Below, in pieces: positions 19,450-56,320 of a stretch of DNA of 64,000 bases (position 1 is its first letter; every line of letters starts with the position of its first letter). The DNA is from an uncultured Verrucomicrobiota bacterium (GTDB lineage: Bacteria > Verrucomicrobiota > CALLYA01 > CAYNBQ01): the NCBI GenBank assembly GCA_964395275.1, contig CAYNBQ010000002.1, forward strand, positions 16,731 through 80,730, written 5' to 3'. The position numbers and the translations under genes are program-made. A model generated the notes under the pieces. That model ran no database searches and was not told the DNA's origin. It worked only from the letters and a program-made list of their open reading frames with translations.

Positions 19450-19494
19450 CGCGCCGCTTCCTCCCGATCCGGCCGATCCGAACCGTCCGTCGCA

Positions 19495-20553: not shown

Positions 20554-20612
20554 GCGATCATCCTTCCCTTCCCGTCTTCGGAAATGCCTCGGCCCCGGCC
20601 GGGCGCGGCCTT

Positions 20613-21008
20613 CTACGCTTCATGGAGGCCGTCGTCGACGGTCGGCGATTCGGAACCTCCCCCGTCGTGCAGGACCGATTCCATATCCGCCTCGACCTGC
20701 TCCGGATCCTCGCCCCTTTCGACCCGATCCAGGGCCTCTTCGAACCGCGGATCGAATCTCTCCCCCGCCTCCCGGCCGATCTCGCGCATCATGCGGGCCA
20801 GGATCCGCCGATCCGCCGTCCCCTCGTTCGCCTCCGCGGAATCGGCCGGCGCGCTGTGCCCGCGCGCCGGGGTGAAGCGCGAGGGCCGACGTTCCAGCCT
20901 CGGACGCCCGCACCGCGGGCAGGAAGGCGGACCGTGCCCGCGGACGTTGCGCACCAGGAAGGAAAAGATCCGGTTGCAGGAAGCGCAGTAATACTCGTAG
21001 ATCGGCAT
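20613..21008 (-). CDS. FmdB-family zinc-ribbon protein
   Basis: ORF 20613..21032, trimmed to ATG at 21008. MPIYEYYCASCNRIF...CPRCG is a CxxC...CxxC ribbon. Confidence 0.7.
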   Translation of the reverse strand: MPIYEYYCASCNRIFSFLVRNVRGHGPPSCPRCGRPRLERRPSRFTPARGHSAPADSAEANEGTADRRILARMMREIGREAGERFDPRFEEALDRVERGEDPEQVEADMESVLHDGGGSESPTVDDGLHEA

Positions 21009-38411: not shown

Positions 38412-38538
38412 GCTGCGGATCTCCGCGCGCCGCCCCGCCGAATCGGGACCGGCACGTCGGCCGGAAGCATACGAAGGTTCTTTGGAATCTCTCAACGCAT
38501 TTCGGTAGGCTCGGCGGAACCGGGGAGAGGAGATCCCG

Positions 38539-39255
38539 ATGCGCTACGAAACCCTGCGCAGAGCCGTCTGCGAAGCCAACCGTACGTTGTGGAAAGCCCG
38601 CCTGGCGCCCCTGACCTGGGGCAACGTCAGCGCGGCGGACGCCGACGCGGGCGTCCTGGCGATCAAGCCGAGCGGGGTCCCCTACGAAGACCTCGAACCG
38701 GAGATGATTCCCGTCGTCTCGATCCGCGACGGGACGCCGGTGGAAGGCGATCTCCTTCCCTCGTCGGACACTCCCGCGCATCGCCTTCTCTACCGCCGTT
38801 TCCCCGGAATCGGAGGGATCGCCCACGCGCATTCCCCGTATGCGACCGCCTGGGCGCAGGCCCGCCGCCCGATTCCCTGCCTCGGAACGACCCATGCCGA
38901 CGCCTTCCGCGGAGAGATCCCGGTCACCCGGCCGCTGCGGGAGGCCGAGATCGCGGCGGACTACGAAGAGGAAACGGGAAAGGTGATCGCCGAGCTTTTC
39001 GAAGCCCCCTCCGCTCCGGATCCGATGGAAATGCCGGCCGTTCTCGTGGCCTCCCACGGCCCCTTCACCTGGGGACGATCGGCCCGCGAGGCCGTCGTTC
39101 ATGCGATCACCCTGGAGGAGATCGCGCGCATGGCCGTGCTCACCTTCCGGATCGCGCACGACACGCCGCCGATCCCGGACGTTCTCCTGGAGCGTCACTT
39201 CACCCGCAAACACGGCCCGGGATCCTACTACGGGCAGCGCGGAGAAACCGGCTGA
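38539..39255 (+). CDS. L-ribulose-5-phosphate 4-epimerase / class II aldolase family (AraD/FucA-like)
   Basis: ORF 38539..39255. TWGNVSAAD...VLAIKPSGVPYEDL...PSSDTPAHRLLYRRFPGIGGIAHAHSPYATAWAQ is very AraD-like. Confidence 0.8.
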   Translation: MRYETLRRAVCEANRTLWKARLAPLTWGNVSAADADAGVLAIKPSGVPYEDLEPEMIPVVSIRDGTPVEGDLLPSSDTPAHRLLYRRFPGIGGIAHAHSPYATAWAQARRPIPCLGTTHADAFRGEIPVTRPLREAEIAADYEEETGKVIAELFEAPSAPDPMEMPAVLVASHGPFTWGRSAREAVVHAITLEEIARMAVLTFRIAHDTPPIPDVLLERHFTRKHGPGSYYGQRGETG

Positions 39256-39280: not shown

Positions 39281-41257
39281 TCAGTAGGGCAACTGGATGA
39301 CGGATTTCGAGATCAGGGTGAATCCGATCGCCAACATGCCCGTCAGTCCGAGACCGCAGGTGGCGCCCGCCGTGAGCACCGGCACGTACCGGCGCCACTT
39401 GTCGCGGCCGAACCGGGGTTGGAAGACGTAGTGGCCGAGAAGGGCCCCGGCGAAGAGCAGGACCTGGTTGTGCGGCCAGGCGCCGATCCCGGTCAGCAGC
39501 CCGTAGAAGAGGAAGAGCGGCCCGTTGAAGATCATGAAGAGGGCGTAGAGCCCCAGCCCGCCGCCGAGACCGAGGGCGATGTATCCGGGCTTGATGGCGT
39601 CGAACAGCAGCGAGTTGCCGGTGCGGGTTCCCGTCGCCCAGAGGCACTGCCAGTACGCCTGGATGCCCCACATCTTGGCCGCGTAGGGATAGGCCGCCGA
39701 CGGAATCTGGTTGAGCTTCCACAGGAAGGAACAGAAGAGGACGCTGGTGATCAGCAGCAGGGGGAAGATCAGCAGTTCCACCTTGATCAGGCTGGTGAAC
39801 TTCGTCCGGGTCAGGGTGAGTTCCCGGAAGGTCTGGGTCATCCATCCGTAGTCGGCCAGGGGGACGGGAGCGAACCAGATGGCGATGCCGTTGTACCCGA
39901 GCATCCGCGTGCTGAGGATGAACGACGCCTCCCGGAAATAGCTGAACTGCACCGGTTGCCCCGTCAGGCCGACCATCCGCGCCGAAATGTACGAGTTGAA
40001 CGGCGTCCAGACCAGGGCGTAGAAGACCAGCAGCCACCACGGAAACGTCGGAACGAGACGGTGGCAGAGGTAGACGAGCGACAGGGCCGCCGTGAGCCAG
40101 ACGCCCACCGCCAGGAGGACGGGGATGTCGCCCCGTTCCTTCGAACCCCGCTGGATCTTGCGTTTCTCGCCCCGCCGCAGGAGGGCGTGCGCCGCGGATC
40201 CGATCCCGATGAAGGCGATCGTCAGGGTCGTTCCGATCCGGATGGACATCCAGAGGTCGAGATCGTTGGCGATGTACGTCTGGATGGTGTCCATCCCCGG
40301 TTTCCACGAGGTCAGGATGTCGTGGTTGTAGAGAATGGGGTTGAGAACGATCATCGTGCCGATCGAGGCGATCGTGGCGCCGATGACCAGCCGGAAGGGA
40401 AGAACGAATCCGATCAGGATGAAGAGAAGGTTCGTCCCCAGCCCGACCAGGGCCGCCGGCAGGATTCCCTGGGTCTTCTGCGTCAGGTCGATGAAGGGGA
40501 TCGGAAGGATCTGCACCGGCTTGTTCATGATACCGCCGGTGATCGTCGGCAGCACGACGTAGACGATCCCGAAGACGATGCCGATGGCGGTGCCCGTGGT
40601 GAAGACGCGCCAGCGCCAGGTTTCCTTCGGCTCGTAGGATTCGGCCAGGGCCGTGGCGCCCTGCGCCGCGATCGGGGCCATCGGGAAGGGCAGCTGCTCG
40701 ACGTCGCTGGTGATCCGGAAGAGGGTGTAGCCGAGGCAGAACATCACGATGCGCCCGAGCAGGCCGCTCAACACGATCACGCCGATCGCCGGGAGCCATT
40801 CCCGGCTGAAGATCGTCCGCAGCAGGTAGACCGGCGAACCCCGCGGCGGGGCGATCCACGGGTTCTGGCTGAGTTCGCCGACGATTCCGAACTGCTCGGC
40901 CTGGATCGACTGCACCAGGAACTGGTTCCAGAGGATCTGGAAGAAGGGGCCGCCCGATACCACCAGCCCGCCGGCGAGCGCGAAGAGGACCACGATCTCC
41001 TGCCGGGTCAGACGCGTGAAACAACGGCGCGAGACCTCCGTGAAGAGAATCACCGTGACCCACTGCGCGGCCGTGTGCATCCCCTGTTCCGATCCCGCCA
41101 CCAGCGTCAGATAGATCGCGCCGGGCAACATGACGAAGGCCAGGAAAAGGCCCCCGATGACCGACTTCATGTTGAAGCCGTCCCGGTACGGTTCCCGGGC
41201 CTCCTGGAAGGCGGCCGACCCCCATTCCTGCAGCAGTTCTTCCTGAATCGACGGCAT
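39281..41257 (-). CDS. Polytopic integral membrane protein of unknown function (paralog of 46609..48570), third gene of the giant-protein operon
   Basis: ORF 39281..41257 (658 aa). At least 14 hydrophobic segments, rich in W, F, Y and G, with no recognisable catalytic motif. RBS GGGAGAAGAG lies 17 nt gap after the upstream stop. Confidence 0.7.
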   Translation of the reverse strand: MPSIQEELLQEWGSAAFQEAREPYRDGFNMKSVIGGLFLAFVMLPGAIYLTLVAGSEQGMHTAAQWVTVILFTEVSRRCFTRLTRQEIVVLFALAGGLVVSGGPFFQILWNQFLVQSIQAEQFGIVGELSQNPWIAPPRGSPVYLLRTIFSREWLPAIGVIVLSGLLGRIVMFCLGYTLFRITSDVEQLPFPMAPIAAQGATALAESYEPKETWRWRVFTTGTAIGIVFGIVYVVLPTITGGIMNKPVQILPIPFIDLTQKTQGILPAALVGLGTNLLFILIGFVLPFRLVIGATIASIGTMIVLNPILYNHDILTSWKPGMDTIQTYIANDLDLWMSIRIGTTLTIAFIGIGSAAHALLRRGEKRKIQRGSKERGDIPVLLAVGVWLTAALSLVYLCHRLVPTFPWWLLVFYALVWTPFNSYISARMVGLTGQPVQFSYFREASFILSTRMLGYNGIAIWFAPVPLADYGWMTQTFRELTLTRTKFTSLIKVELLIFPLLLITSVLFCSFLWKLNQIPSAAYPYAAKMWGIQAYWQCLWATGTRTGNSLLFDAIKPGYIALGLGGGLGLYALFMIFNGPLFLFYGLLTGIGAWPHNQVLLFAGALLGHYVFQPRFGRDKWRRYVPVLTAGATCGLGLTGMLAIGFTLISKSVIQLPY

Positions 41258-41274: not shown

Positions 41275-44200
41275 TCAGGCTTCCTCTTCTTCGATCTTCC
41301 CGGAGAGGATGTCTTCGGTGCGGCTGTAGTAGATGTCCTTCTCCTTGTCAGGCAGAACGCGCCAGAGCAGGATGGTCTTGCGCAGGCGGTTGAAGAACTC
41401 CCGGTTCGTCCGGCGCCAGGCCGTCTCCTCGCCGCTGATCCGGCGGATCGCCAGGCGGAAGGTCAGTTTCCCCTCGATCACGTCCGAAGGCAGGGAGATC
41501 AGTTCCACGTCCTGTTGCACACCGAAGTCGTAGGGCGCCAGGCGGCACCGGAAGGAGATCACCGCGAGGCCCTCTTCGATATCGTCGCGGAACCGGACGT
41601 TCTCGGCGCAGAAATGCCCGACGGCCTCCTCGCGATGCGCCCGGAAATAGTCGACGAGATAGGCGTTGAAGGGATGGACCTGGTTCTCGTCGATGATGAA
41701 CGGCAGGTCGAGAATCCACCGGTCGCCCTCGGGATCTCCCACCTGCCAGGTCCGGGCGATGTCGGGGGTCGCCAGGCGGTGGGCCAGCGAGGCCGGGTAG
41801 AGACTCGATCCGATCGTCACCAGCATGACCATCGCCACCGCCAGGAAGGTCGACATCGACGAGTAGTTCAGCGTCAGGCCCGCCAGCCAGTGGTTCTTCG
41901 CCAGCGTGAAGGCGACCGCCTGCCCCAGAAGATATCCGGCGATGGCCCCCAGCACCGCGTAGACGCAGGATTCGGCGATGAACAGACTGGAGATGTGGAC
42001 CGGGGAAAGGCCGACCGAACTGTAGGTGTGAATCTCCTTCTGCCGTTCGTAGACCGATCCGAGCATCGTGTTGAAGATGATCAGTCCGGCGATGAGAAGC
42101 GGGATCGCCATCGTGCCCAGGCCGGAGAGCGAACTCGCCCCGATCGAGTTGAAAAGCATCGCCGTCTCGCCCGGCTTTTCCCCCACGTAGATCGCCAGCG
42201 ACCAGCCCGACAGCAGTTTCTCGACGAACCCCCTCAGGTCCATCGATTCGTCCAGGGGCCGCGCCGCGATCGAACGCACCGTCCCCCCGCGCATCATCAG
42301 GGTCTTGAAGGGCAGCAGCGCGACCGCCGAGGCCGGGAAATAATCGTATTCCTCGAGCGCGGCCGCGGTCGTGCCCGTCTCCTCGTCTCGACGCACCTGT
42401 TCGGCCCTCCGGACGAGGAAACTCGCCGGGGTCAGCGGATCGTCGTTCAGATCGACGATGTCGTTCCAGCCCGGCAGGCCTTCCTCCGGCTGCGACCGGA
42501 CCAGCCCGATGACCGTAAGCCGTTCCCCGAAGAGCCGTACCGCCGCCGTCCCGAGCCGGTCCGGCGTGATCCCGATCGCCTCCGCAAGGCTGTCGGGCAG
42601 GATGCAGACCTTGCGATCCCCCGGTTCGAACCATCGCCCGGCCGTCAGGGCCCGCCCCACGCCCGTGATCCGGATCTCCTCCGGCTCGAGTCCCACGGCG
42701 CCGGCGATCTGCGTCATGCGCGTCGGTTCGTCGGCGTTCGAGATCTCCATGGCCAGGTATTCTTCCGGCCGCGCCGCCGTCAGCCACGCCCGCGCCGCGA
42801 CCACGAACCCCTCTTCGAAGGCGCGCCGGAACCGGCGGAACTCCGGTTCCTCCAGCGGCGCCCAGTCGAGGTTCCGGTAGAGCACCCCCCGGTACTCCGC
42901 CTTCCAGGGAAGCGGATAGCGGTTCATCCGCAGGTATCCCTGCACGGAGACGAAGGAGATCACCGTGAAGGTCAGGAGAATCAGCGCCACGCAGGTCAGC
43001 GTCGTCTTCATCTTCCGCCGGCGCATGTAGGAAACGCCGAGATTGAACGCGGTGAGCGCCGCCCCGAAGCGGTTCACGTCGCTGTAACGCAGCGCCACCA
43101 TCCCGGATTTCAGGCGGCGCAGTTCCCGGTTGAACTTCGACATCACCAGGGAGGTCACCACCACCGCGAGGGTGATGATCACGAACCCGAGAAAGATCAG
43201 CAGGGGCGTCATGGTGATTGCGAAGGCCGGGTGCACCATCGCCAGCAGCAGGAGTACGACGGCGAAGACACCCACCACGCCCGCGATCCGCGCGCGGATG
43301 TCCGCGAAGGCGAAGACGAGCCGTTCGGTGAAGAAGGCGAAGGGCAACGCCATCGCCAGGTAGAAGATCACCCCACGGACCACGTCGTTCGAGGTGCTGA
43401 TCACGTCGGGATACACCCGCGACGCGAAGGCCCACGCGTCCGAAGTCGCTTCCACGTACCGGCTCCAGAGCCGGTCCTTTCGGTAGTTCGCCGCCCGGTC
43501 CAGCGCCGCGCGGGCCTCCCGGTGCATTCCCGCCAGAAACTCGCTCACGATGCCGTGCCGCGTCAGGGCCGCAAGACGTTCCTCGTTCAGGTACCAGAGG
43601 TCCCGGGCCACCCGTTCCGGAACCTCCTTCATGACCCCGTGGACGGGGCGGAATCCGTACGTCGAACCCTTGTGATTCTCGATCACCGTCGAGACCAGCC
43701 GTTCCACCTCCTGCCGCCGCTTGCGCCAGGCGTGGTCCGTGCCTCCGTTCCGGGCCTCTTCCACGAGCGTCCGGAACGTTTCGCGGGCCTCCCGGAGATG
43801 CCGGAGCTCCTTCTCGGTCGGCGGGACGATGCCCCGGGAAAGCAGTTCTTCGGGATCCGCGTCAAGGATCTTCGAAAACAGCTCTTCCACGGTCTTCGGC
43901 TGCAGGCTTGCCGGCGCCCTCGCCAGGGCGTCGGGACCGCTTTCCGCCCGGTCGAGGCACCCCCGGACGGCGTAGCCGAGTTCGATCAGCGGCGTGGCGG
44001 CGTTGACCAGCACGAGCCGTTTGCCGACCAGCCCGAGGCTCATCGTCAGTTTGAACCGGTCGTCCGGCCTCGTGAAGATCACCACGCAGGGTTCGATGTA
44101 CGAGGTGGCGTACCGAGGAACCATCGGCAGCGAAAACCCGAAGAACTGCGGTTCGGCGTCGGTGCGCCCGTCCAGGATCTGCAGGTACTGCAGGGAGAGC

Positions 44201-46605
44201 AGGTAGCGCGGATCGACCAGATCCACCAGGGCCGTCGCGGAACAGTCGAAAAGCACGGCCGTGATCCCGAGGGCGGATCGCGAGGGGATGTGGATTCGAT
44301 GGAAGTTGTACTTCCGGTCCCCTTCCCCGCCGAGGTCGTGGGCCATGGTCACGTGCCCGGTTTCTTCGTCCAGGAGAAAGGCCTGGAGTTCGGCGCCGGC
44401 GGTCCAGAGGAACCCGGGGAACGAGAATCCCCCGTCCTCGTCGGCGATCGTCACGTGTTCGGTGTGGATTCCGTACAGGGGTTTCGGGAATCCCCGCAGA
44501 TAGGCCCCCTTCATTCCCCGTTCGGGACGGACCATCAGCAGGGCGCCGGGAACGGGCGTGTCCGCGATGAGGCTCTTGGCCTGTTCGAGACGGACGGCCC
44601 GGCCGTGGATGGCCGGGTAGAGACGGAACTTCTCGTAGATGTGCAGGTCGATGTCGACGTCGTCGGCCAGCATCCGGCAGATCGTCGCCGCCATGCGGCC
44701 GCCCAGGAGGAGGTTGTCGAGGTTCACCTGTTCGACCGTGTCTTCCGGCGTGTCGACGAGCCGGCGCGCGTCTTCGCAGGTCGCCACCGTGACGGCGGGG
44801 ATCGCCATCGAAACGATCTCGCTTTCGAAGGCGAAGGTCTCGCTGAAGAACGATTCCGCGCTGGTTCCCCGCTGCCCCGTGATCGTCTCGGCGAAGATCG
44901 CCGCCGCCGGCACGCCGAGCGCGTCGCCGAGGCCCGGTTGCCCCATTTCGGCGTCGCCGATGATGCGGCTGCGCAGGGCCCGTCCGAGCGGAACGTATTC
45001 GCGCTGGCGGTAGATGTCGCGGTTGTCCTCGTATCCCCCCCGGATGAAGAGGCCGACCTTGGGGGAGCCGCTGGTGAGATCGAACCCCACGAAGAGAACC
45101 GGCGAACGTTTCCGGGCCCGTTCCCGTTCGGAGACCCGCCGGAACAACGGGGCGCGGGGCCGATTCTTCCTGGCCTCTTTCACCAGGCGGTCCAGCTCCG
45201 GCGTGTGCTCGTATTTCTTCTGGAGACGGACGATGGCTTCGCGCGCCTTACGGCACAGGGCGATCTCCTCGGCCGCGCCCGGCCGGTTCCTCAGCTCCGG
45301 ATCGTTCCGGAGATCGCGGATGCGCGTGCGGAGATCCGCCAGGGCGCCCTTGAGGTCCCCCATGTCCCGGAAGGCGTTGCGCACCCCTTCGTAGGTTTCG
45401 ACGTAGGCGTTGGCCCGGTCCCATTCCGTGCTGAAGGGGGGAACCGCGAGAACCTCGATTTCCCGGCGGACCTTTTCCTCCTCCTCGCTCTTCGATTCGA
45501 GGCTCTCCCGGACGTCCGCATAGAGGTTCGTGATCGCCTCCAGCGTCGGGAATTCCCGCGCCAGACGTTCGAAATCCGGCAGGCGCGCCCGCAGCATCTT
45601 CTCTTCGAGGGGGATCGCCAGCAGTTTGCGATGATGGCCGCCGTTCGTGTTGGCCTCGCTGAACCAGCGAATGAAGTTGGCGGCCCCGCTCATGCCCAGG
45701 AAATGCGCGTCGGTGAATACGAAGAGGACCGTCCGGGCCGGCGGATCCTCCGCGAACTGCCGGGCGGTTTCCAGGAGGGCCGCGGCGTTCCCGGCGGCTT
45801 CCGCTCCCGGGGCGCGGTTCGGCACCACGGAAACGGCGTCGTAGTACGCGGAGAGAATCACCCTCTCGTTCGCATGGTCCGGATCCGACCCGGGCAGCAG
45901 TCCGATGACGTTGTGCGCCGTGACCGTTTCCCAGTGCGACCCGCCCCACAATCGCGCCCGCTCGCCCCGGCGGGCGGCTTGGCGCAGCTCCTCGGCCCGG
46001 TCCGCGCGGCGCAGCATGAAACGCGGATAGTCCAGGGGCGCCGACAGAAGAGCGCGCTCCATTTCGGTGCGTTCCACCACGCGCGGGGGCAGGAAGACGA
46101 CGGCGCGGATCCCCAGTCCGGCGACCCGGACCCAGAAATCCCCGTCGGCGAAATCCTGCACGAGGATGCCTCCCTCGACGTCGGTGCCGTCGAGGTCCTC
46201 GTACGATCCGGCGTAGATCAGCGGACCTTCGATTCCCTCCCGGGGGGTCTTCGGCGGAACGCCCGCATTGGGCCATAGGGCGTCGACTTCCAGATCCATC
46301 CCGCCGACCTGCAGGCGGCCCGGCGCGTCGGGGACCGGAACGGTGACGTCGAACTCCTGCACCACGACGCGGTTCGTGCCGAGAATCTCCCCCAGTTCGG
46401 CCCGGATGTGTTCGAAGGCGTTCGAGGAACCGACCGATCCCGGCATCCTCGATTCGTCCGAGGTGAGAATCCGCAGGGTTTCCTCGATCCGGGAGCGGTC
46501 GAAGGGCGGCGCGGGGGAACCGGCCCGGGCGGGACCCGCGTTCCCGAGCAGGACCAGGATCGCCGCCGAGAGCAGCGGCAGTCGGATGAGTGCACGGTTC
46601 CTCAT
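41275..46605 (-). CDS. Giant exported multidomain protein: signal peptide + degenerate M28-peptidase-like domain + long extracytoplasmic region + TM cluster + FtsX/MacB-fold permease module + C-terminal cytoplasmic domain
   Basis: ORF 41275..46605 (1776 aa). Signal peptide MRNRALIRLPLLSAAILVLLGNAGPARA. M28-like HNVIGLLPGSDP...RVILSAYYDAVSVVPNRAPGAEAAGNAAALLETARQF...VLFVFTDAHFLGMSG with metal ligands substituted. FtsX TM1 TLTCVALILLTFTVISF, then a periplasmic domain, then MLGSVYERQKEIHTYSSVGLSPVHISSLFIAESCVYAVLGAIAGYLLG, an FtsX/MacB TM2-3 signature. Starts 3 nt after the upstream gene's stop. Confidence 0.8.
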   Translation of the reverse strand: MRNRALIRLPLLSAAILVLLGNAGPARAGSPAPPFDRSRIEETLRILTSDESRMPGSVGSSNAFEHIRAELGEILGTNRVVVQEFDVTVPVPDAPGRLQVGGMDLEVDALWPNAGVPPKTPREGIEGPLIYAGSYEDLDGTDVEGGILVQDFADGDFWVRVAGLGIRAVVFLPPRVVERTEMERALLSAPLDYPRFMLRRADRAEELRQAARRGERARLWGGSHWETVTAHNVIGLLPGSDPDHANERVILSAYYDAVSVVPNRAPGAEAAGNAAALLETARQFAEDPPARTVLFVFTDAHFLGMSGAANFIRWFSEANTNGGHHRKLLAIPLEEKMLRARLPDFERLAREFPTLEAITNLYADVRESLESKSEEEEKVRREIEVLAVPPFSTEWDRANAYVETYEGVRNAFRDMGDLKGALADLRTRIRDLRNDPELRNRPGAAEEIALCRKAREAIVRLQKKYEHTPELDRLVKEARKNRPRAPLFRRVSERERARKRSPVLFVGFDLTSGSPKVGLFIRGGYEDNRDIYRQREYVPLGRALRSRIIGDAEMGQPGLGDALGVPAAAIFAETITGQRGTSAESFFSETFAFESEIVSMAIPAVTVATCEDARRLVDTPEDTVEQVNLDNLLLGGRMAATICRMLADDVDIDLHIYEKFRLYPAIHGRAVRLEQAKSLIADTPVPGALLMVRPERGMKGAYLRGFPKPLYGIHTEHVTIADEDGGFSFPGFLWTAGAELQAFLLDEETGHVTMAHDLGGEGDRKYNFHRIHIPSRSALGITAVLFDCSATALVDLVDPRYLLSLQYLQILDGRTDAEPQFFGFSLPMVPRYATSYIEPCVVIFTRPDDRFKLTMSLGLVGKRLVLVNAATPLIELGYAVRGCLDRAESGPDALARAPASLQPKTVEELFSKILDADPEELLSRGIVPPTEKELRHLREARETFRTLVEEARNGGTDHAWRKRRQEVERLVSTVIENHKGSTYGFRPVHGVMKEVPERVARDLWYLNEERLAALTRHGIVSEFLAGMHREARAALDRAANYRKDRLWSRYVEATSDAWAFASRVYPDVISTSNDVVRGVIFYLAMALPFAFFTERLVFAFADIRARIAGVVGVFAVVLLLLAMVHPAFAITMTPLLIFLGFVIITLAVVVTSLVMSKFNRELRRLKSGMVALRYSDVNRFGAALTAFNLGVSYMRRRKMKTTLTCVALILLTFTVISFVSVQGYLRMNRYPLPWKAEYRGVLYRNLDWAPLEEPEFRRFRRAFEEGFVVAARAWLTAARPEEYLAMEISNADEPTRMTQIAGAVGLEPEEIRITGVGRALTAGRWFEPGDRKVCILPDSLAEAIGITPDRLGTAAVRLFGERLTVIGLVRSQPEEGLPGWNDIVDLNDDPLTPASFLVRRAEQVRRDEETGTTAAALEEYDYFPASAVALLPFKTLMMRGGTVRSIAARPLDESMDLRGFVEKLLSGWSLAIYVGEKPGETAMLFNSIGASSLSGLGTMAIPLLIAGLIIFNTMLGSVYERQKEIHTYSSVGLSPVHISSLFIAESCVYAVLGAIAGYLLGQAVAFTLAKNHWLAGLTLNYSSMSTFLAVAMVMLVTIGSSLYPASLAHRLATPDIARTWQVGDPEGDRWILDLPFIIDENQVHPFNAYLVDYFRAHREEAVGHFCAENVRFRDDIEEGLAVISFRCRLAPYDFGVQQDVELISLPSDVIEGKLTFRLAIRRISGEETAWRRTNREFFNRLRKTILLWRVLPDKEKDIYYSRTEDILSGKIEEEEA

Positions 46606-46608
46606 CGG

Positions 46609-48570
46609 CTACTCGATGATCAGGACTCCCTCGATCGGGAAGAAGAAGTGGATCAACAACCAGGTGAACAGAATGAAGGCCTCGCCGAGAATCAGCCCGA
46701 GCGCCGCCGGATAGAGTTTCCGCCAGAGTTTCACGCCGCCGAGCCAGGTCACGACCGACTTGATCGACCATCCGAGGAAGACCGACCACCAGTAGCGGCC
46801 CATCGTCCAGGTCGTGTTCACCACGAACCCGAGCGGATGGAAAGGCCACCAGAGAAACTGCTTCCTCATGAACACCAGGAAGAGCGTGAACAATCCTCCC
46901 AGGGCCATGTCGGGATACTCGTTTCCGCGGAAATACTGGTTGCGATAGATCGGCGTCGACACGATGCCCGCGCACCAGCGCGCGGCGCCCCGCGTCCACC
47001 AGCCCAGGTTCGGGATCGCCGTGCGGTACATCACCCAGATGGACGGGATGTGGCAGGCGAGCATCGACACCAGGATCGCCAGCGTGATCATCAGGAACAG
47101 GACCCGGCGGTTCAGCTTCGCCGTATCCCCGATCTTGAAGGCCTGGAGGACCTGGGGCTGGATGCAGGTGGCCGCATCCACCAGGTTCCAGCCGATCATC
47201 GTCAGGGAGGTCACGTTCTGCCGGGAAAGATTCTCGGAGCCGAACGGGAGGAAGGCCATCTGGTGCGGGTAGACGCCGAACCAGTAGACGAACAGGCCGG
47301 TCTCCGAAATGATGCGCGTAAGCACCATGATCGCCAGGAAATACCAGCCGAACATGATCGCCGCCAGCCCGAGCGACAACCCCGCCGCCCAGCACCACGC
47401 CAGGATCCCCGCCATCCCGAAGACGATGCCGAAAACGGCCGCGCGGTAGCTGATCGGTTCGTCGGAATCGTCGATGCGTCGATCGTTCGTGAAGGCCTTG
47501 CGCAACACCGCCAGGAAATGCTTCCGCCCCATCCAGAGGTAGAAGAGACCGATCGCGGCCACGGACCCGATGTGCAGCGCGCGGAAATACTCCCCGTGCC
47601 GTTCCGCGCCCGCCGTGATGCGCACGATCTCCTGCACGTACCGGAAGAAGTAGAAGAAGACCAGGCTGAAGCCGACCTCCCAGGTCAGCATGTAGGCGAT
47701 GCCGATCATCCCGAAATAGAAGCCGATCGAGATCCGGTTCAGGACGTTCCAGGGACGATCCGAGAAGAGGTTCGCGAACCAGCGCGGATAGAGGTTGAAG
47801 TGCGGGAAGGACGGCGCGTAGGCGTGAATCCCGTTCACCAGGTAGACGATCACGGGAATCAGGAACGCGATCCAGAAGGCCCGTTTCCGGAAGAAGGGGG
47901 AGGCGCCCGTGCGTCCCGGTCCCTCGGCGGTCATGTCCAGGGGCACCTGGGCCAGGGGGAAGAGCAGGCGCTCGTTCTCGATCCATTGCTTGCGCAGCAC
48001 CACGCAGATGCAGATCGTCACGAAAAAGATCAGGAAGAGAAAGGGCGTCCAGACCGCCAGCGGACGCACCCAGAGGTGCCAGGGGATGTCGTGGAAGCCG
48101 GCCCCCTCCGGCAATCCTTCGAAAAGCCACCGCACCACGGGGGCGTTGGGATCCTTGGAAGGCACCAGCCAGTCGCGGATGTACCGGTGAAATCCGTTCA
48201 CCGGGTCCGCCCACTGGTTCTGAGGGGTCGCGTAGTAGATCGGACCGACCAGTCCCAGGTAGAGATAGGTCGCGAACTGCTGGCCCGGGATCCCGGACAT
48301 CACCACCAGCGTGCAGTAGACGAAGAGAAGCTCGCTGCGGCGCAACCCGCGCATCCGCGTGAAACGGCGGACGAGGAAATTGATCGCCAGAAGGACGAGC
48401 AACGGATAGAGGGCCGAGCGCGGCAGATGTCCCGTGCCGATGAGGTCATAGCGCAGGAAGGCCGAGAAACATCCGGCGACGGAGATGCCGACGACCAGCG
48501 CCAGCGCGAGGACTCCCACGGCTGCGGCACGCATCAGCGAGGTGCGTTCTTCCGCGCCGCGCTCCCTCAT
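46609..48570 (-). CDS. Polytopic integral membrane protein of unknown function (paralog of 39281..41257), first gene of the giant-protein operon
   Basis: ORF 46609..48570 (653 aa). N-terminal region aligns to the other copy (FTRMRGLRRSELLFVYCTLVVMSGIPGQQF versus FTRLTRQEIVVLFALAGGLVVSGGPFFQIL). At least 14 TM segments, W/F-rich. Confidence 0.7.
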   Translation of the reverse strand: MRERGAEERTSLMRAAAVGVLALALVVGISVAGCFSAFLRYDLIGTGHLPRSALYPLLVLLAINFLVRRFTRMRGLRRSELLFVYCTLVVMSGIPGQQFATYLYLGLVGPIYYATPQNQWADPVNGFHRYIRDWLVPSKDPNAPVVRWLFEGLPEGAGFHDIPWHLWVRPLAVWTPFLFLIFFVTICICVVLRKQWIENERLLFPLAQVPLDMTAEGPGRTGASPFFRKRAFWIAFLIPVIVYLVNGIHAYAPSFPHFNLYPRWFANLFSDRPWNVLNRISIGFYFGMIGIAYMLTWEVGFSLVFFYFFRYVQEIVRITAGAERHGEYFRALHIGSVAAIGLFYLWMGRKHFLAVLRKAFTNDRRIDDSDEPISYRAAVFGIVFGMAGILAWCWAAGLSLGLAAIMFGWYFLAIMVLTRIISETGLFVYWFGVYPHQMAFLPFGSENLSRQNVTSLTMIGWNLVDAATCIQPQVLQAFKIGDTAKLNRRVLFLMITLAILVSMLACHIPSIWVMYRTAIPNLGWWTRGAARWCAGIVSTPIYRNQYFRGNEYPDMALGGLFTLFLVFMRKQFLWWPFHPLGFVVNTTWTMGRYWWSVFLGWSIKSVVTWLGGVKLWRKLYPAALGLILGEAFILFTWLLIHFFFPIEGVLIIE

Positions 48571-48692: not shown

Positions 48693-48770
48693 TGGGGTGA
48701 GCGAGGGGACTCGAACCCCCGACCTTCAGGGCCACAACCTGACGCTCTAACCACCTGAGCTACGCCCACC
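48693..48770 (-). tRNA. tRNA-His (anticodon GTG) with genome-encoded G-1 and 3' CCA
   Basis: Reverse complement reads G-GTGGGCG-TA-GCTCAGGTGGTTAGAGC-G-TCAGG-TTGTGGC-CCTGA-AGGTC-GGGGGTTCGAGTCCCCT-CGCTCAC-C-CCA. The cloverleaf has a 7-bp acceptor stem, and an extra 5' G pairs with discriminator C73, which is specific to tRNA-His. Confidence 0.85.
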
Positions 48771-48887
48771 ACTGTACGCGAGAGCCTTCCCCCGGACCCT
48801 GCCGCCGGGGGGCCAAACCGGCGCCCATACTACGCGGGCGCTTCCCGCGGGTCAACAGGCTGCGTCCGCTTCCCCTCTTTCCTCCCT

Positions 48888-50084
48888 TTACAACGGAAGC
48901 CGGTTCAGTTCGAACAGCGGAAGAAGGATGGCCAGCGCCACGAAAAGGAAGACGATTCCCATCACGATGATCATGCCTGTCTCCAGGATCGTGCTCATCC
49001 GTTCGGTACGGGCCTCGATCACCGTCTCCAGAAGATCGGAACCGTGCGCCAGCAGCGAGGAGACCTCTCCGCTCGCCTCGCCCGCCCTGGCCAGATGATG
49101 GATCACCGGCGGCAGGGCCCCGCTTTCCTCCAGCGCGCGGGACAGGGGGATTCCGCTGCGCACACGGCCCGAAACCCCTTCCAGCCGAGCGGCCAGCGCC
49201 CGGTTGCCCACCGACGACCGGGCGATTTCCAGCGCCTCCGCCATCCGCACGCCGCCGCTGAGCAGCGAGGCGAGCGTCCTCGCATAACGGGCCGATTCGG
49301 CGTCGGAGAGCAGACGTCCCGCCAGGGGGATCCGGAGTTTCAGCCGGTCGATCTTCTCCCGCGCCGCCGGACGCGACGCCCAGCGTCGAAACCACAGGAC
49401 CCCCGCCGCCAGAAGAAGCAATCCCGGCAACCAGGCGGACGCCGCCAGCCGGCTCAGGGCCGCCACCACCCGCGTCGGCCACGGCAGTTCCCGGCCCAGC
49501 TCCGTGAAGAGGCCGAAGATCCTCGGCGCCACGAAGGTCAACAGGAACGTGAAGACCACCGCTCCGAATCCCAGCAGGATCGCCGGGTAGAGCATCGCGG
49601 TGCGGACGCGGTCCGCAAGGCGCGCCGAGCTCTCCAGTCCCTCCGCGGCCCGGTCCAGAACGGTCGGCAAGACCGCCGCCCGCTCGCCGGCCCGGAGCAG
49701 TCCCACGATTTCCCGGGGGAAGACATCGGGGAAGGCCGCCGCCGCGCTTCCGAGCGATTCCCCGCGCGAAACCGATTCGTGCAGCGAATGAACGATCGCC
49801 CTCAGTCCGGGATCTTCCACCTGGTCGGCCAGGGCGCGCAGGGCCTGGGCCAGCGGCATGCCGGCGCGCACCATGGCCGCCAGTTGCCGCAGGGCGAGGG
49901 CCAGATCCGCCCGCCCCACCTTCGCCCGCCGCCGCACGCGGGTGCCGCGCGCGGGACGCAACTCCTCCGGAAAGAGCCCACGGCGCACCAGCGTCTCGCG
50001 CGCCGCGCGTTCGCTCGGGGCCTCCACCGTGCCCCGGGCCGGAGATCCCGCCGAATCGAAAGCTCGGTAGTCGAACGAAGGCAT
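48888..50084 (-). CDS. gspF: Type II secretion system inner-membrane platform protein GspF
   Basis: ORF 48888..50084. MPSFDYRAFDSAGSPARGTVEAPSERAARETLVRRGLFP is the canonical GspF N-terminus. Two GspF repeats and three TM helices. Confidence 0.85.
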   Translation of the reverse strand: MPSFDYRAFDSAGSPARGTVEAPSERAARETLVRRGLFPEELRPARGTRVRRRAKVGRADLALALRQLAAMVRAGMPLAQALRALADQVEDPGLRAIVHSLHESVSRGESLGSAAAAFPDVFPREIVGLLRAGERAAVLPTVLDRAAEGLESSARLADRVRTAMLYPAILLGFGAVVFTFLLTFVAPRIFGLFTELGRELPWPTRVVAALSRLAASAWLPGLLLLAAGVLWFRRWASRPAAREKIDRLKLRIPLAGRLLSDAESARYARTLASLLSGGVRMAEALEIARSSVGNRALAARLEGVSGRVRSGIPLSRALEESGALPPVIHHLARAGEASGEVSSLLAHGSDLLETVIEARTERMSTILETGMIIVMGIVFLFVALAILLPLFELNRLPL

Positions 50085-50091
50085 CGGGGCT

Positions 50092-51783
50092 TCAGTCCTG
50101 ATCCCGCATCGTCACGCGCACCACTTCCGAAAGCGTGGTCAACCCCGCCCGCACCTTCTCCAGACCGTCGTCGCGCAGGGTGCCCATGCCCCGGCGCGAC
50201 ATCAGCTCCCGCAAGGCCGCCTCCCCCTCCCCGTCGTGCACCATGCGGCGCACGTCGCGGTCGAAGGAAATCAGCTCGAACAACCCGATCCGCCCGAGGT
50301 ACCCGGTTCCGCCGCATCGGTCGCATCCGCGCCCCCGCCGCGGGCGCAGCCCGGCCGACTCCTCCGCGGTCAGGCCGATCGCGCGCGCCAGGTCGGGATC
50401 GACCGGGACCTCCTCCGCGCATTCCGGGCAGATCCTCCGGACCAGCCGCTGGGCCAGCACCGCAAGAAGACAGGCCGACAGGAGAAAGGATTCCACGCCC
50501 ATGTCGATCAGGCGCGTGATCGCCGAAACCGCGTCGTTCGTGTGCAGCGTCGAGAGCACCTGGTGTCCCGTCAGCGAGGCCCGCACCGCGATCGCCGCCG
50601 TTTCCAGGTCGCGCATCTCCCCGATCAGGATCACGTCCGGATCCTGCCGCAGCACGTGCCGTAGCCCCTGCGCGAAGGTCAGGCCGATCTGCGGTTTCAC
50701 CTCGATCTGCCCGATCCCCCCGATCTGGTACTCGACCGGTTCCTCGATCGTGATGATGTTGCGGCGCCTGTCGTGGATGTGCCGGATGGCCGAGTACAGG
50801 GTCGTCGTCTTCCCGCTGCCCGTGGGCCCCGTCACCAGGAGCAGCCCGTGGGGCATGCGCAGGAGGCGGTCGATGGTCCGGAAGATGCCTTCCGGCATTC
50901 CCAGGGCCTCGAGCGAATAGAGCATCGAGGCCGGATCCAACAGCCGCAGGACGACCCGTTCCCCGAAGGTGGTCGGCACCGTCGACACCCGGATGTCGAT
51001 CTCGCGGTCCCCGATCCGGATCCGCGCCTTGCCGTCCTGCGGAAGCCGCTGCTCGGCGATGTCCAGATCCGCCATGATCTTGATCCGGCTGACGATGCCC
51101 GGATACATCGACCGCGGCGGGGCGTTCTGTTCCTGAAGAACCCCGTCCACGCGGAACCGCACGCGCAGCTCCCGTTCGTACGGTTCGATGTGGATGTCGC
51201 TGGCCCGCGAGCGGACCGCGCGGAGAATCATCGTGTCGACGACCTCCACCACCGGCCCTTCGTCCGAACGACCGAGCAGATCCGCCTCCGTTTCGACGGA
51301 GGCGCTTCCCTCCTCCGGAAACTCCGGTCCGCTTTCCTCGGGGCTCAAGCCCGCGGCCTCGTAATAGAAACGGTTGATCGCCGAACGCAACGCCGACGGT
51401 CCCGCGACCACCACTTCGACCGGGGATTCCAGAAGAAGACCCGCGTCGTCGATCGCCGCCGTGTCCAGCGGATCCGCCATGGCCACGATCACGCGGCCAC
51501 CCGCGCGCCCGATCGGCAGGAGAAGATGTCTCCTGGCGAACCCGATCGGAATTCGCGCGACGAGTTCCTCCGGCACCGGCGCGCGATCGAGGGGCGGCGC
51601 CGGATCGAGGCGCAACGCCGCGGAAAGAGCCGATACGTACCGCTCCTCGTCCAGAACCCCCCCGGCGGCGAGCGCCTCGGGCAACCCGCCGGGCGCCTCC
51701 GCGCCCCGGCCGCGGAGCACTTCCTCGATCTGGTCGCGCGTGCAGACCCCGTCGCGCACGAGAATCTCGGCGATCGCCGACAT
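50092..51783 (-). CDS. gspE: Type II secretion system ATPase GspE
   Basis: ORF 50092..51783. Walker A GPTGSGKTTT, Asp box, Walker B VILIGEMRD, His box TLHTN, and the tetracysteine CPEC...CDRCGGTGY. Confidence 0.9.
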   Translation of the reverse strand: MSAIAEILVRDGVCTRDQIEEVLRGRGAEAPGGLPEALAAGGVLDEERYVSALSAALRLDPAPPLDRAPVPEELVARIPIGFARRHLLLPIGRAGGRVIVAMADPLDTAAIDDAGLLLESPVEVVVAGPSALRSAINRFYYEAAGLSPEESGPEFPEEGSASVETEADLLGRSDEGPVVEVVDTMILRAVRSRASDIHIEPYERELRVRFRVDGVLQEQNAPPRSMYPGIVSRIKIMADLDIAEQRLPQDGKARIRIGDREIDIRVSTVPTTFGERVVLRLLDPASMLYSLEALGMPEGIFRTIDRLLRMPHGLLLVTGPTGSGKTTTLYSAIRHIHDRRRNIITIEEPVEYQIGGIGQIEVKPQIGLTFAQGLRHVLRQDPDVILIGEMRDLETAAIAVRASLTGHQVLSTLHTNDAVSAITRLIDMGVESFLLSACLLAVLAQRLVRRICPECAEEVPVDPDLARAIGLTAEESAGLRPRRGRGCDRCGGTGYLGRIGLFELISFDRDVRRMVHDGEGEAALRELMSRRGMGTLRDDGLEKVRAGLTTLSEVVRVTMRDQD

Positions 51784-51787
51784 CCGT

Positions 51788-53796
51788 TCACCTCGGCCAG
51801 CGAACCGGTTCCCCGGGGATCTCCTCCACCCCCTCCGGAGGGAATACCGGGGTCGGCGAGGGTCCCGATCCGTCCGATTCCTCCCGGGTGAAGAGCCCCC
51901 CGGCCTGATGTTCCTGCATCATCCGGTCCTTCGCCGCCCGGGCCTCGGCCGGGGAACGGATGATGTGCGGGGTGATCAGGATCAACAGGTTCGTGCGTTC
52001 GACCACCTTCGCGCTGCCCCGGAAGAAGAATCCCACCACCGGAATGTCCCCGAGCAACGGGATCTTCCGGCGGCTCGACACCTCCTGGTCCTTCAGCAGC
52101 CCGCTGATGACGATCGTCTCGCCGTCCGCAACCGTCACCGTGTTCTTCACCTGCCTGCGGGCGATCGTCGGCGTGTACATCAGGTCGCCCGTCTGTTCGC
52201 TGATCACCGCTTCCACCGTCGGATTCAGCTCGAGCTGGACATGGTCGCCCTGGGTGATGTGGGGCTTGATCTTCAACTTGATGCCGACGCTCACCCGTTC
52301 GATGTTCTGGATGATGTCCCGCGCGGTTCCGGCCCCCGAGGCGACGGTGGACTGCAACACCGGGATCTCCTCGACGACGTCGAAACTCGCCTCGGTGTTG
52401 TTCTGCGCCCAGAGGCTCGGGTTCGACAGGATCCGCACCTTGCCCAGCTTCTCCAGGGCCCGGATCAGCAGGGGAACCATCGGAACCTGGTTGCCCTCGG
52501 CGTCGGTCCGATAGCCCCGCGCGATTCCGAAGGCGACCCCCTCGGGAAAGATCTGCTGCGTGATCAGATCCGCCGCCGTGTTGCCCGAGGGCGAGAGATT
52601 CGTGAACCCGAGAAAGGTGTTCACCCCCATCTTCGGCAATTCCGTCGTCGCAAGGTCGACCGTCACGTCCTTCTCGTTGCGGGTGGTCACCTCCGCGATC
52701 AGCACGTCCACCAGCACCTGGTCCTGTTCGACGTCGAGTTGCTTGACGAGATCCCGGATGACCTCGAACTCCTTCGGCGGGGCGTCGACCACCAGGGCGC
52801 TGCTTCCCGGAAGGAAATCCACCGCCGTGTCCTTGACCGCCTCCTTGCCGAGCTTCTTCGACAGAAGCGTCGTGAGCATCTCGGCCGTCTTTTCCGGATC
52901 GAGATAGTTCAGCGGAATCGCGTTCAACCGGCTCTTGCCGGGCGGCGTTTCCACGTCGAGCCGTTCCACGATGCTGCGGATGTGTTCGATCTCCGGTGGG
53001 GTGCCGACGACCAGCAGCGCGTTGCTCCGTTCCTCCGCCACGATCTTGACCTCGAGCGGCAGCTCGCTCGACCCGGCCTGCCCCAGCGCGACGCTGCGGC
53101 GGATCCGTTCCTCGGGGGTCAGGTCGAGCCGCAGGACCTTGTTCAACTGGTCGGCGATGTCCCGCACGGGGGCGTGCTCCAGCGGGACGATCTCGAGGAT
53201 GCGCCCCGCGCCCGGCTGATCGAGGTCCCGGATGATCGCGAGAAGCCGTTCCACGTTCTCCGCCGTGTCGGTGATCAACAGGCGGTTCGACCCGGGAAAG
53301 GCCCGGATGGAATTCTCGCCCATCTCCGCCAGCGATTCGAGCGCGCCGGCCAGTTCCCCGGCCGGAACGTTGCGCGCCGCGTAGATCCGCGTGACCAGGC
53401 CGGTCGGCCGACCCTCCTCTTCGCCGGAGACCACGGGACCGCCGATCGTGATTCCCCGCTTCTTCGGCAGGACCCGGACCGCGTTCTCCCCTTCGACGAC
53501 CGCCAGTCCCCGGGCCTCGAGCGCCGCCACGGCCAGGGGATAGACCTCCGACGCCGGGATCCGGTCGGGCGAAATCAGGGTGATCGAGCCCGTCGCTTCC
53601 GAATCGACGATGAACCGCCGGCCCGTGATCCGGCTCACCAGCTTGAGGAACACCCGCAGATCGACCTCGTCGAAGGAGATGTCGACCAGCGCGGGCGTCT
53701 CCGGCCCGGGCGCCGCTTCCGACGCCGGTTCCACGGCCCGGACGGCGGGGGCGGCCAGCACGAACGCCGCAAGAAACAGTCGCGGAACTCGTCTCA
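51788..53796 (-). CDS. gspD: Type II secretion system secretin GspD
   Basis: C-terminal 669 aa of ORF 51788..54673 from MRRVPRLFLAAFVLAAPAVRA. N0-N3 domains, then the secretin domain (NPSLWAQNNTEASF...VVERTNLLILITPHIIRS). The 5' part of the track ORF is spurious. Confidence 0.85.
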
Positions 53797-53886
53797 TGAA
53801 TCTCCGTTCTCCGAACGACGCGCCCGGAGTCGGTCCTTTCCCCGAACGATCGGTGTCCCCCACCCTAGCGGGAAGCCGAAAGCTGT

Positions 53887-54660
53887 TCAACGGGAGATCC
53901 CGCGCGAGGAGTTCCGCACGAATTCCGCCAGCCGGTCGATTTCCTCGAGGGAGGGTAGTTCCTCCAGGATCCTGCGGACCGCCTCGTCGATCGCCAGCCC
54001 TTCCCGGTACAGGATCTTGTAGGCGTGCCGCAGGGCGTTGCGAACCTCCGGGGGAACCCCGGCGCGTTCCAACCCCACCCGGTTGATGCTGCGCACCTCC
54101 GCCGGATGCCCGTCGGCCATCATGTAGGGCGGGATGTCCTGGGTGATCTTGGAGCATCCGCCGATGATCGCCAGCCGCCCGATCCTCACGAACTGGTGCG
54201 CCGCCGTCAGTCCGCCGATGATCGCCCGGTCCTCGACCACCACATGCCCCGCCAGCGTTCCGCAGTTCGCGATGATCACGCCGTCGCCCACGACGCAGTT
54301 GTGGGCGATGTGCGCCACCGCCATGATGTGACAGTTCGAGCCGACGACCGTCTTCTCCCCGTCGCCCGTGGCCGAGTTCACCGTCACGTATTCGCGAAGG
54401 GTCGTCCCGTCCCCGATCTCCACGAAGGTCGTTCCGCCCCGGTACTTCAGGTCCTGCGTCTGGCTGCCGATCGAGGCGAAGGGAAAGATCTCGCAGCCCG
54501 ACCCGATCGTCGTATGCCCTTCGATGACGACGTGGGAATGCAGGCGGCAGCCCGCCCCGAGCCGTACGTGTTCGCCGATCACGCAGTACGGACCGATCTC
54601 GACCCCTTCCCCCAGCTCCGCCCCCGGGGAGACCACCGCCGTCGGGTGTATCGTCGTCAT
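53887..54660 (-). CDS. lpxA: Acyl-ACP--UDP-N-acetylglucosamine O-acyltransferase
   Basis: C-terminal 257 aa of ORF 53887..56769 from [29 protein letters not shown]. Hexapeptide repeats and the LpxA C-terminal helical domain. ATGA overlap with the upstream stop. Confidence 0.85.
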
Positions 54661-55979
54661 CGATCCCCCGCATCCACCAGCGCGAACATCAGTTCGGCTT
54701 CCGAAACCAGTTCCCCGTCCACGGTGATCCTTCCCTTCACCTTCCCGGTCCTGCCGCGCACCTTCAGCATCTCCGCCTCGATGATCAGACGGTCCCCGGG
54801 CGTCACCGCGCGCCGGAACTTCGCGTTGCTGATCGACATGAAATAGGCCAGCTTGCGCTGGTTGCCCGCCTTGCCCAGCAGCAGCACCCCCCCGACCTGC
54901 GCCATCGCCTCGATCTGCAGAACCCCCGGCATGATCGGATGCCCCGGGAAATGCCCCTGGAAAAAGGGTTCGTTGATCGTCACGTTCTTCAGTCCCACCG
55001 CGCGGTCTTCGTCCTGCCGGACCTCCAGCATCCGGTCGACCAGCAGGAACGGGTAGCGATGCGGCAGCACGCCCATGATCCCCTGGGTATCCAGGGATTC
55101 GTCCCCCGCGGGAACGGGAACGGACGCCTCCTCGATTTCCTTCCGGCCCTGAATGCTCTCCTTCAGCAGCCGGGCCAGTTCCACGTTCGGCGGATGCCCG
55201 GGCTTGATCGCGACGACATGGGCCTTCAGCGGTCCGCCCAGCAGATAGAGGTCGCCGACCATGTCGAGGATCTTGTGGCGAACGAATTCGTCCGGGTAAC
55301 GCAGGGCCTCCTTGCTCAGGATGGCGTCGTCCCGGACCACCACCGCGTTGTCCAGGCTGCCGCCCCGGATCAGCCCCTTCTCCATCAGGGTCGCCACTTC
55401 GTCGTAGAAACAGAAGGTGCGCGCCGGGGCCAGTTCCTCCCGGAAGGTCCTCTCGTTCACGTCGAGGCTCAGGTACTGCGCGTCCAGGGCCGCCGTCCCG
55501 TAGCTGATCGTGCAGGAGATGCGGAACTCCTCCGCGGGCAGGGCCACCATCGTGACCCCGTCGCGGCTCATCGACACCGTCCGGCGCAGCTCCAGCACGC
55601 GGCGCGGTTCGTCCTGTTCCTGCACCCCCGCCTCGTTCAGCGCGTTGAAAAACGGAAGACTGCTTCCGTCGCCGACGGGAGGTTCGCCCTCGTCGAGTTC
55701 CACCAGGAGGTTGTCGATTCCAAGGCCGCTGGCCGCCGCCATGACGTGTTCGACCGTGTGCACCCGGACCTCGCCGAGCCCGATCGTCGTTCCCCGGCGC
55801 ACGTCCACCACGTTGTCGATCTTCGCCGGAACACAGGGCCGGCCCGGAAGATCCGCCCGGACGAACAGGACGCCCGTGTTCGGCGGGGCCGGCCGGAACG
55901 TCGCCGTCGCCCGCATTCCGGTGTGCAGCGCGATGCCGGTCACGCTGACCTCGCGCGCGATCGTTTTCTGATTCGCCAT
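54657..55979 (-). CDS. lpxC: Bifunctional UDP-3-O-acyl-GlcNAc deacetylase / 3-hydroxyacyl-ACP dehydratase (LpxC-FabZ fusion)
   Basis: ORF 54657..56066, trimmed to ATG 55979 ([21 protein letters not shown]). LpxC domain (HTVEHVMAA...[12 protein letters not shown]) followed by a FabZ hot-dog domain ([19 protein letters not shown]). Confidence 0.85.
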
Positions 55980-56320
55980 GATTTCCCCCGGATCGGCCGC
56001 CGACGCGGCGTCCGAAAAGCGTTCCACAAGGATTTCCGATTCCCCCGACCGAAGCCTCCATAGCACGGGACCGACCGCGGCACAAGATCCTCCGCGGCCC
56101 GCCGTCGTCCTGCCCGGCGGCGCGCGAACCCGTCCGATCCGGCGATCCCGGAACCGCTCCCTGCTTGTCCGGGGGGCGATTCGATGGTTCGATCGGTGCC
56201 ATTCGTTCGCGATGGATCTCCCGGTCCCCGCGTCTCCCGGCGACGCCGTCGCCGGCGCAGGACGGGATCCGCCGCAAACCCAGCAACCGGGTCCGCGGGG
56301 AGAGACCCGGGTACGGAGAG

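Follow-up and report, generated by a model that had tools for sequence, protein, structure and literature searches.

Two remote paralogues with a predicted OPT-type fold accompany a giant FtsX-type protein in an uncultured Verrucomicrobiota bacterium

The barley protein HvYS1 is a homodimeric, proton-coupled, elevator-type symporter with core and scaffold domains, and a C-terminal strand mediates its dimerisation (PMC9691689). We describe here two proteins, A and C, that are like HvYS1 and the OPT/YSL family in overall predicted fold, size (~650 amino acids, aa) and all-helical polytopic architecture, at a sequence identity to HvYS1 of just 13-15%. Their genes lie on either side of a giant gene, B, in a 64,000-nucleotide stretch of DNA (hereafter the window; GC content ~66%) from an uncultured Verrucomicrobiota bacterium (contig CAYNBQ010000002.1 of assembly GCA_964395275.1, positions 16,731 to 80,730 of the forward strand; Table 1). 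Known OPT/YSL proteins work alone, whereas A and C occur linked, and in some cases fused, to a giant protein of the FtsX type. Protein B shares with the MacB/FtsX-type (type VII) ATP-binding cassette (ABC) permeases, such as MacB, LolCDE, FtsEX and YtrF, the FtsX C-terminal domain and the periplasmic domain between the first two transmembrane (TM) helices of the module, but it is 1776 aa long and has three extra TM helices, a unique cytoplasmic tail and no fused nucleotide-binding domain. To our knowledge, no MacB-type system has OPT-fold partners, and we know of no primary/secondary hybrid architecture of this sort described for either superfamily. The searchable literature appears to contain no description either of an OPT fold for A or of its association with a giant FtsX-type protein. 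We lean, with moderate confidence, towards a reading in which A and C are OPT-type permeases that dock to the MacB/FtsX-type protein B and handle a peptide-like substrate.

Proteins A and C are polytopic and almost wholly helical, and both are rich in aromatic residues (W 4.6%, F 8.6% and Y 4.1% in A; W 3.2% and F 6.5% in C). Open reading frames (ORFs), composition and helicity thus bear out a first-pass annotation of this DNA, which had described two W/F-rich polytopic proteins of ~655 aa bracketing a giant gene. The same annotation found them to be without recognisable motifs. This description no longer applies, since A matches two Pfam families, the Pfam OPT model PF03169 is matched by 7 of 40 members of the C family (best E 9.6e-14), and an E-x-L-x-F-P block is common to both families. 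Protein A passes the gathering thresholds of DUF6785 (aa 20-517; E 1.5e-134; 449.7 bits against a cut-off of 25) and DUF6784 (aa 555-644; E 9.9e-28; 96.7 bits against 26.4), in the order DUF6785 then DUF6784, and all 44 aligned homologues of A match both. It is therefore a full-length, high-scoring member of a large family to which C does not belong. Hundreds of A homologues are present in the databases, and an A-profile HMMER scan of 50%-identity cluster representatives returned 8683 of these at E ≤ 1e-3, the weak end of which may contain C-like or OPT proteins, and 3526 at E ≤ 1e-30. No Pfam family matches C itself at E ≤ 1, including DUF6785, DUF6784 and PF03169, and neither A nor C has a model in NCBIfam. 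In one search, the homologues of C formed at least 2108 clusters, several of them named ‘peptide transporter’ by NCBI or carrying PF03169. The link to OPT at the level of sequence is thus transitive for C, through members of its family, and for A it runs through the alignment of the A and C profiles alone.

Our statements about fold rest on AlphaFold2 models that were built with family alignments of database homologues (44 sequences for A, 40 for C) and searched against the PDB with Foldseek. The models reached pLDDT 93.7 and pTM 0.93 for A, and pLDDT 84.4 and pTM 0.85 for C. HvYS1 (7WST/7WSR) was the sole significant fold for both proteins. Model A aligned with 7wst_A over 669 columns (E 6e-9; TM-scores 0.66/0.71; probability 1.00) and model C did so at E 1.2e-11 (TM-scores 0.64/0.69; probability 1.00), while all other entries had E > 0.02 and TM-scores < 0.2. 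The predicted models of A and C both have the YS1-type fold over their whole length. HvYS1 was reached by fold alone; when the PDB sequences were searched by phmmer and by profile hmmsearch with A, C and their families, nothing useful emerged. Judged from these models, A and C represent two branches of the OPT superfamily that have diverged deeply, and DUF6785 and DUF6784, to which Pfam gives no function, are two pieces of one OPT-like fold that has been split into two entries. By analogy with OPT proteins, A and C would be elevator-type, probably proton-coupled, secondary permeases. Because A is a DUF6785+DUF6784 protein and both A and C have the predicted OPT/YSL fold, such permeases are likelier than the channel or scaffold proposed in the first-pass annotation.

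That annotation had also noted that A and C lack hallmark motifs of GT-C glycosyltransferases, oligosaccharyltransferases, Wzy polymerases and ComEC proteins. The Foldseek lists of both models contain none of these folds, and Pfam and NCBIfam gave no match to any of them. The RND/MmpL class is represented by a single Foldseek entry, HpnN, at a TM-score of 0.07, and it too lacks Pfam and NCBIfam matches. Thus, among the folds that had been put forward for comparison (GT-C, MmpL/RND and OPT), the models agree with OPT, in the form of HvYS1, and disagree with GT-C and RND. Only size, the many helices and the aromatic-rich loops speak for one of these other classes, and we consider it very improbable that A or C belongs to any of them.

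The two proteins had been called paralogous, with similarity in N-terminal blocks. BLASTP does not detect this relationship (best E 0.48), but at the level of family profiles it is clear. In hhalign, the A and C families align at a probability of 96.8% and an E of 2.2e-10, with 15% identity in 550 collinear columns that cover nearly the whole length of both proteins, so that the similarity is not confined to the N-terminus. Control alignments with reversed profiles, or with the B family as an unrelated one, gave E values of 0.1-0.45 over at most 74 columns, which argues that the signal is not an artefact of composition. The best-conserved block common to both families is E-x-L-x-F-P (E200, L202, F204 and P205 in A; E187, L189, F191 and P192 in C). 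On this profile evidence, the full-length similarity is real, and A and C are deeply diverged, very remote paralogues.

The C family, with a mean column identity of 53% across phyla, keeps a set of invariant buried charged or polar residues (E74, R78, D185, E187, E206, R215, D257, D334, R427, E443 and K492), which we read as a sign of a working transporter. All 40 aligned members carry the C-terminal tail KSVxxLP[FY] and stop exactly there (aa 645-658; window 39284-39325). In the A family, about half of the members end in GV[LV][VI]IE (aa 640-653; window 46609-46650). Both tails are compatible with a strand-mediated dimer like that of HvYS1, and, since this sole solved relative is a dimer, a hetero-oligomer of A and C is plausible by analogy. 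One Verrucomicrobiota locus with A, B and C (L001) has a C homologue that is ~150 aa longer (816 aa); a gene for a Dpy19-like protein, of a GT-C type mannosyltransferase family, follows it directly (19162-20937).

Protein B consists, in order, of a signal peptide, a periplasmic PA/M28-like domain, three TM helices, a MacB/FtsX module and a 165-aa cytoplasmic tail. Its Pfam matches are M28 (E 8.8e-10) and FtsX (PF02687; E 9e-14; aa 1500-1608), and its matches in the PDB are MacB, LolC/F, YtrF, FtsX and YwaD. Hydropathy and alignments place TM1 of the module at ~1203-1221, followed by a periplasmic domain of ~270 aa and by TM2-4, so that B has the four-TM FtsX arrangement with a periplasmic domain between TM1 and TM2. 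Neither a Walker A nor an LSGG motif was found in B, which is thus without an ATPase domain.

The periplasmic N-terminal region of B extends over ~1050 aa. Its PA and M28 regions are similar to those of the M28 aminopeptidase YwaD of Bacillus subtilis (PDB 6HC6; E 2.9e-5), but the M28-like fold carries a charged helical insert of ~200 aa, and four metal-ligand or catalytic positions have been replaced throughout the family. Relative to YwaD, the substitutions are H to Y254, D to E269/A270, EE to H301/F302 and H to D618, and the motifs AHYD, GANDNGSG, EE and YHTPED read AYYD, GAEAAGN, HF and VDTPED. B therefore lacks the co-catalytic zinc ligands (His, Asp, Glu, Asp/Glu, His) and the catalytic Glu of M28 metallopeptidases. 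Across 41 homologues, the residues found in B (Y254, D256, E269, H301 and D618; aa 252-308 and 616-627) show no or almost no variation, and this conservation suggests a remodelled, functional pocket with a new conserved site rather than decay.

Genes A, B and C look like one unit in the window, bounded by a tRNA-His gene upstream and a convergent aldolase gene downstream of C, with gaps of 3 bp between A and B and 17 bp between B and C. The trio recurs in a Verrucomicrobiota metagenome-assembled genome (MAG), where stop and start codons overlap, and in a groundwater Armatimonadota MAG. An Omnitrophota MAG contig contains A and then the start of B, and the B-C pair is found in the cultured bacterium Abditibacterium utsteinense and in one other genome. 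We analysed 80 metagenome loci seeded with C, of which 41 were informative in that they extended at least 5.5 kb upstream; in 31 of these 41, B was directly upstream of C. Gene orders among the C-seeded loci included BC (35), ABC (9), BAC (4) and CAB, and the linkage of A, B and C survives this shuffling across at least five phyla. A FolC-like gene of the Mur ligase family lies divergently upstream of B in six loci (e.g. L047 3369-4601, L048 3169-4464 and L069 71-1360), which may be shared synteny of related genomes.

The HMMER scan with the A profile also revealed a natural B-A fusion. This 2120-aa protein has an entire B homologue as its first part and an entire A as its second; it aligns with B in BLASTP (3e-144) and matches MacB_PCD, FtsX, DUF6785 and DUF6784 in Pfam. 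It belongs to a cluster of 56 members, which include several full-length ones from independent Latescibacterota assemblies. One Latescibacterota fusion gene (L129 10001-16363) is a single uninterrupted ORF with no C homologue within 10 kb, and it is surrounded by several FG-GAP/ASPIC-UnbV genes. As sequence evidence, the fusion argues well for physical cooperation between the OPT-fold protein and B, and it suggests that B has A and C as partners, either jointly or as alternatives. The functional tie to the middle gene suggested in the first-pass annotation is upheld by the fusion and by synteny in several gene orders. The annotation named as its refutation the assignment of a family with a function unrelated to that gene; a family has now been assigned, but the evidence on function links it to B.

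Alternatively, A and C may be stand-alone OPT-type importers of peptides or metal chelates, which are co-regulated with B and make no contact with it. OPT-family proteins function on their own in plants and fungi, A genes stand alone in Fervidibacteria, and some loci have C alone in unrelated contexts. Independent action is harder to reconcile with a single B-A polypeptide in many independent assemblies, with genes that are 3-17 bp apart or overlapping, and with a linkage that persists through ABC, BAC and CAB orders in at least five phyla, and we think it unlikely.

The fusion could also be explained if A and C have kept the OPT fold and do not transport anything, but instead, possibly as a heterodimer, serve as membrane anchors or assembly platforms for the positioning or regulation of B. 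Protein A, with few conserved charged intramembrane residues, would suit such a role, as would the fixed, conserved C-terminal tails of both families, which resemble the dimer-interface strand of HvYS1. In contrast, the many buried charges that C keeps across phyla are typical of an active ion-coupled transporter, and the lone and arrayed A-type genes of Fervidibacteria, which have no B, fit autonomous transporters better. We therefore regard a pure scaffold as improbable.

In other genomes the module is larger. About 16 of the 80 C-seeded loci add four genes, which encode a ~300-aa unknown protein, a PqqD-like, peptide-binding protein (PF05402; E 2.8e-14), a minimal FtsX of ~205 aa without a periplasmic domain (E 1.2e-21) and an ABC ATPase (E 1.9e-35). 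All seven genes stand in a row in locus L051 (231-11989), and accessory genes are also found beside (A)-B-C in L052, L070, L083-L085, L094, L097, L102, L105, L114 and L128. The ABC ATPase of this extended module would supply the ATPase that B lacks, and, by analogy, the combination of B and the small FtsX suggests an asymmetric (heterodimeric) permease pair like that of LolCDE. The searchable literature gave nothing relevant on combinations of FtsX, PqqD and M28 or of OPT and FtsX.

The PqqD-like protein, the ABC ATPase and the small FtsX would also be at home in a system for export or for maintenance of the envelope. Such a system might export or process an endogenous peptide, akin to the ribosomally synthesised and post-translationally modified peptides, or might remodel the cell wall in the manner of FtsEX with a hydrolase in cis; the OPT-fold proteins would serve to export the peptide or to recycle released fragments. 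MacB/FtsX systems act on periplasmic substrates or hydrolases, and the charged helical insert in the M28-like domain of B recalls the coiled coils of EnvC and PcsB. However, the loci showed neither a gene for a precursor peptide nor a maturation enzyme, the characterised members of the OPT family are importers, and the PqqD-like gene is absent from the window and from most loci. An exporting or remodelling system thus strikes us as quite unlikely.

If A and C are instead OPT-type permeases docked to B, the periplasmic M28-like domain of B would capture, and possibly trim, a peptide-like substrate. Through its FtsX module, B would transmit the conformational work of an ABC ATPase and of a small FtsX partner, both of which are encoded within the module in other genomes and would lie outside the window in this one. 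Substrate or product could then be passed to docked A and/or C, acting as homo- or heterodimers like HvYS1, and be carried across the inner membrane into the cell. 

Several observations weigh against permeases docked to B. Like C, A has no match to PF03169 at E ≤ 1, and neither protein itself bears this sequence mark of the OPT/YSL family (TC 2.A.67); none of the 44 A-family members matches it. The A family has few conserved acidic intramembrane residues, and DUF6785 and DUF6784 (PF20581 and PF20580) have no mention in the searchable literature. About a quarter of the C loci have no B nearby and have unrelated neighbours, so the partnership is not obligatory in cis, and the A homologues of Fervidibacteria, whether single or in three-gene arrays, have neither B nor C within 10 kb. 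The ~300-aa protein, the PqqD-like protein, the small FtsX and the module ABC ATPase are absent from the 64-kb window, and the ABC ATPases that are present there do not adjoin A-B-C. Finally, with the canonical zinc ligands lost, peptidase activity of B is doubtful.

More tentatively, A, B and C may be parts of a composite envelope machine that physically couples elevator-type permeases of the OPT fold to an ABC transporter with MacB-type mechanotransmission and that also includes the accessory gene products. ATP would then drive periplasmic capture or processing by the M28-like receptor domain, with direct handover to the secondary transporters for import. If the physical coupling is true, it would be a new way to combine a MacB-type ABC machine with secondary transporters, and the module would be a candidate system for nutrient acquisition or for the envelope in lineages whose membrane biology is little known.

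With these assignments, DUF6785/DUF6784, a family of thousands of 50%-identity clusters, gains a predicted fold and a likely job, and the unnamed ‘peptide transporter’ family of C gets the same fold, which places both within the OPT superfamily. The permeases recur with the giant FtsX-type protein in Armatimonadota, Planctomycetota, Verrucomicrobiota, Omnitrophota, Latescibacterota and other poorly studied phyla. They offer a testable lead in such phyla, with no direct bearing on a long-standing question. Cultured carriers exist in A. utsteinense, which has the B-C pair, and in Fervidibacter sacchari, which has stand-alone A-type genes; the paper on the latter mentions a generic OPT transporter and nothing further that is relevant.

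Codon-position GC marks the A, B and C frames as coding (GC3 0.87-0.89; A 0.89) and shows the overlapping ORFs on the opposite strand to be high-GC shadows. Upstream of A, the 318-bp gap that follows the F gene of the type II secretion system (T2SS) contains tRNA-His(GTG), which parts the T2SS genes from A and thereby sets the upstream edge of the A-B-C unit. A riboswitch or another RNA in this region might have hinted at the substrate, but the search found tRNA-His alone. The promoter match in Table 1 is one of two sigma-70-like sites found, against 0.9 expected by chance. Adjacency to the T2SS cluster was rejected as a functional clue, because the tRNA gene intervenes before A, and in those related loci for which gene tables were read, no T2SS cluster adjoins the module. 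The two genes listed downstream of C, for a class II aldolase and a protein with an L-fucose isomerase domain, belong to sugar metabolism and have no evident tie to the module.

Table 1. Positions in the window of genes A, B and C, of their domains and of neighbouring features.
Feature	Position	Strand	Size	Remarks
Type II secretion cluster with preceding LpxC-FabZ gene	48888-56066	minus		
LpxC-FabZ fusion gene	54657-56066	minus		Upstream-most, before secretin
Secretin	51788-54673	minus	961 aa	
GspE-like T2SS ATPase	50092-51783	minus		
GspF-like T2SS F protein	48888-50084	minus		Last gene before tRNA-His
Sigma-70-like promoter match	48827-48855	minus		TTGACC-17-TAGTAT; upstream of tRNA-His and A; weak
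tRNA-His(GTG)	48693-48769	minus		Rfam 63.8 bits; ARAGORN
Gene A	46609-48570	minus	653 aa	ORF and translation
DUF6785 part of A	47020-48513	minus		Holds the E200-x-L202-x-F204-P205 block
DUF6784 part of A	46639-46908	minus		Last helices of the predicted OPT-like fold, then conserved C-terminal tail GV[LV][VI]IE
Gene B	41275-46605	minus	1776 aa	Between A and C
M28-like core of B	45667-45912	minus		aa 232-313; canonical zinc ligands replaced
FtsX-like permease C-terminal domain of B	41782-42108	minus		aa 1500-1608; PF02687 and alignment with MacB 5lil
Gene C	39281-41257	minus	658 aa	ORF and translation
Class II aldolase	38539-39255	plus		Convergent; next gene downstream of C
Gene with L-fucose isomerase C-terminal domain	37002-38495	minus		Downstream of C

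Fervidibacterota and their relatives (L003, L004, L011 and L031) carry DUF6785-type paralogues, for example three in a row in L003 (10001-17512), an array that is split by an argininosuccinate lyase gene and is without B or C in its vicinity. One DUF6785-type copy in Candidatus Fervidibacter sacchari (L043) is apparently fragmented (pseudogenised). The neighbours of stand-alone A genes, which include genes for Gfo/Idh/MocA, DapB, DUF456 and VanW proteins, give no consistent clue to the substrate. Gfo/Idh/MocA oxidoreductase genes adjoin A-type genes in 19 of the 44 A-seeded loci (L005-L046) and are also found in 11 C-seeded loci; examples are L126 3-1103 and L009 8852-9907. This recurrence may be due to chance, the family being abundant in these phyla.

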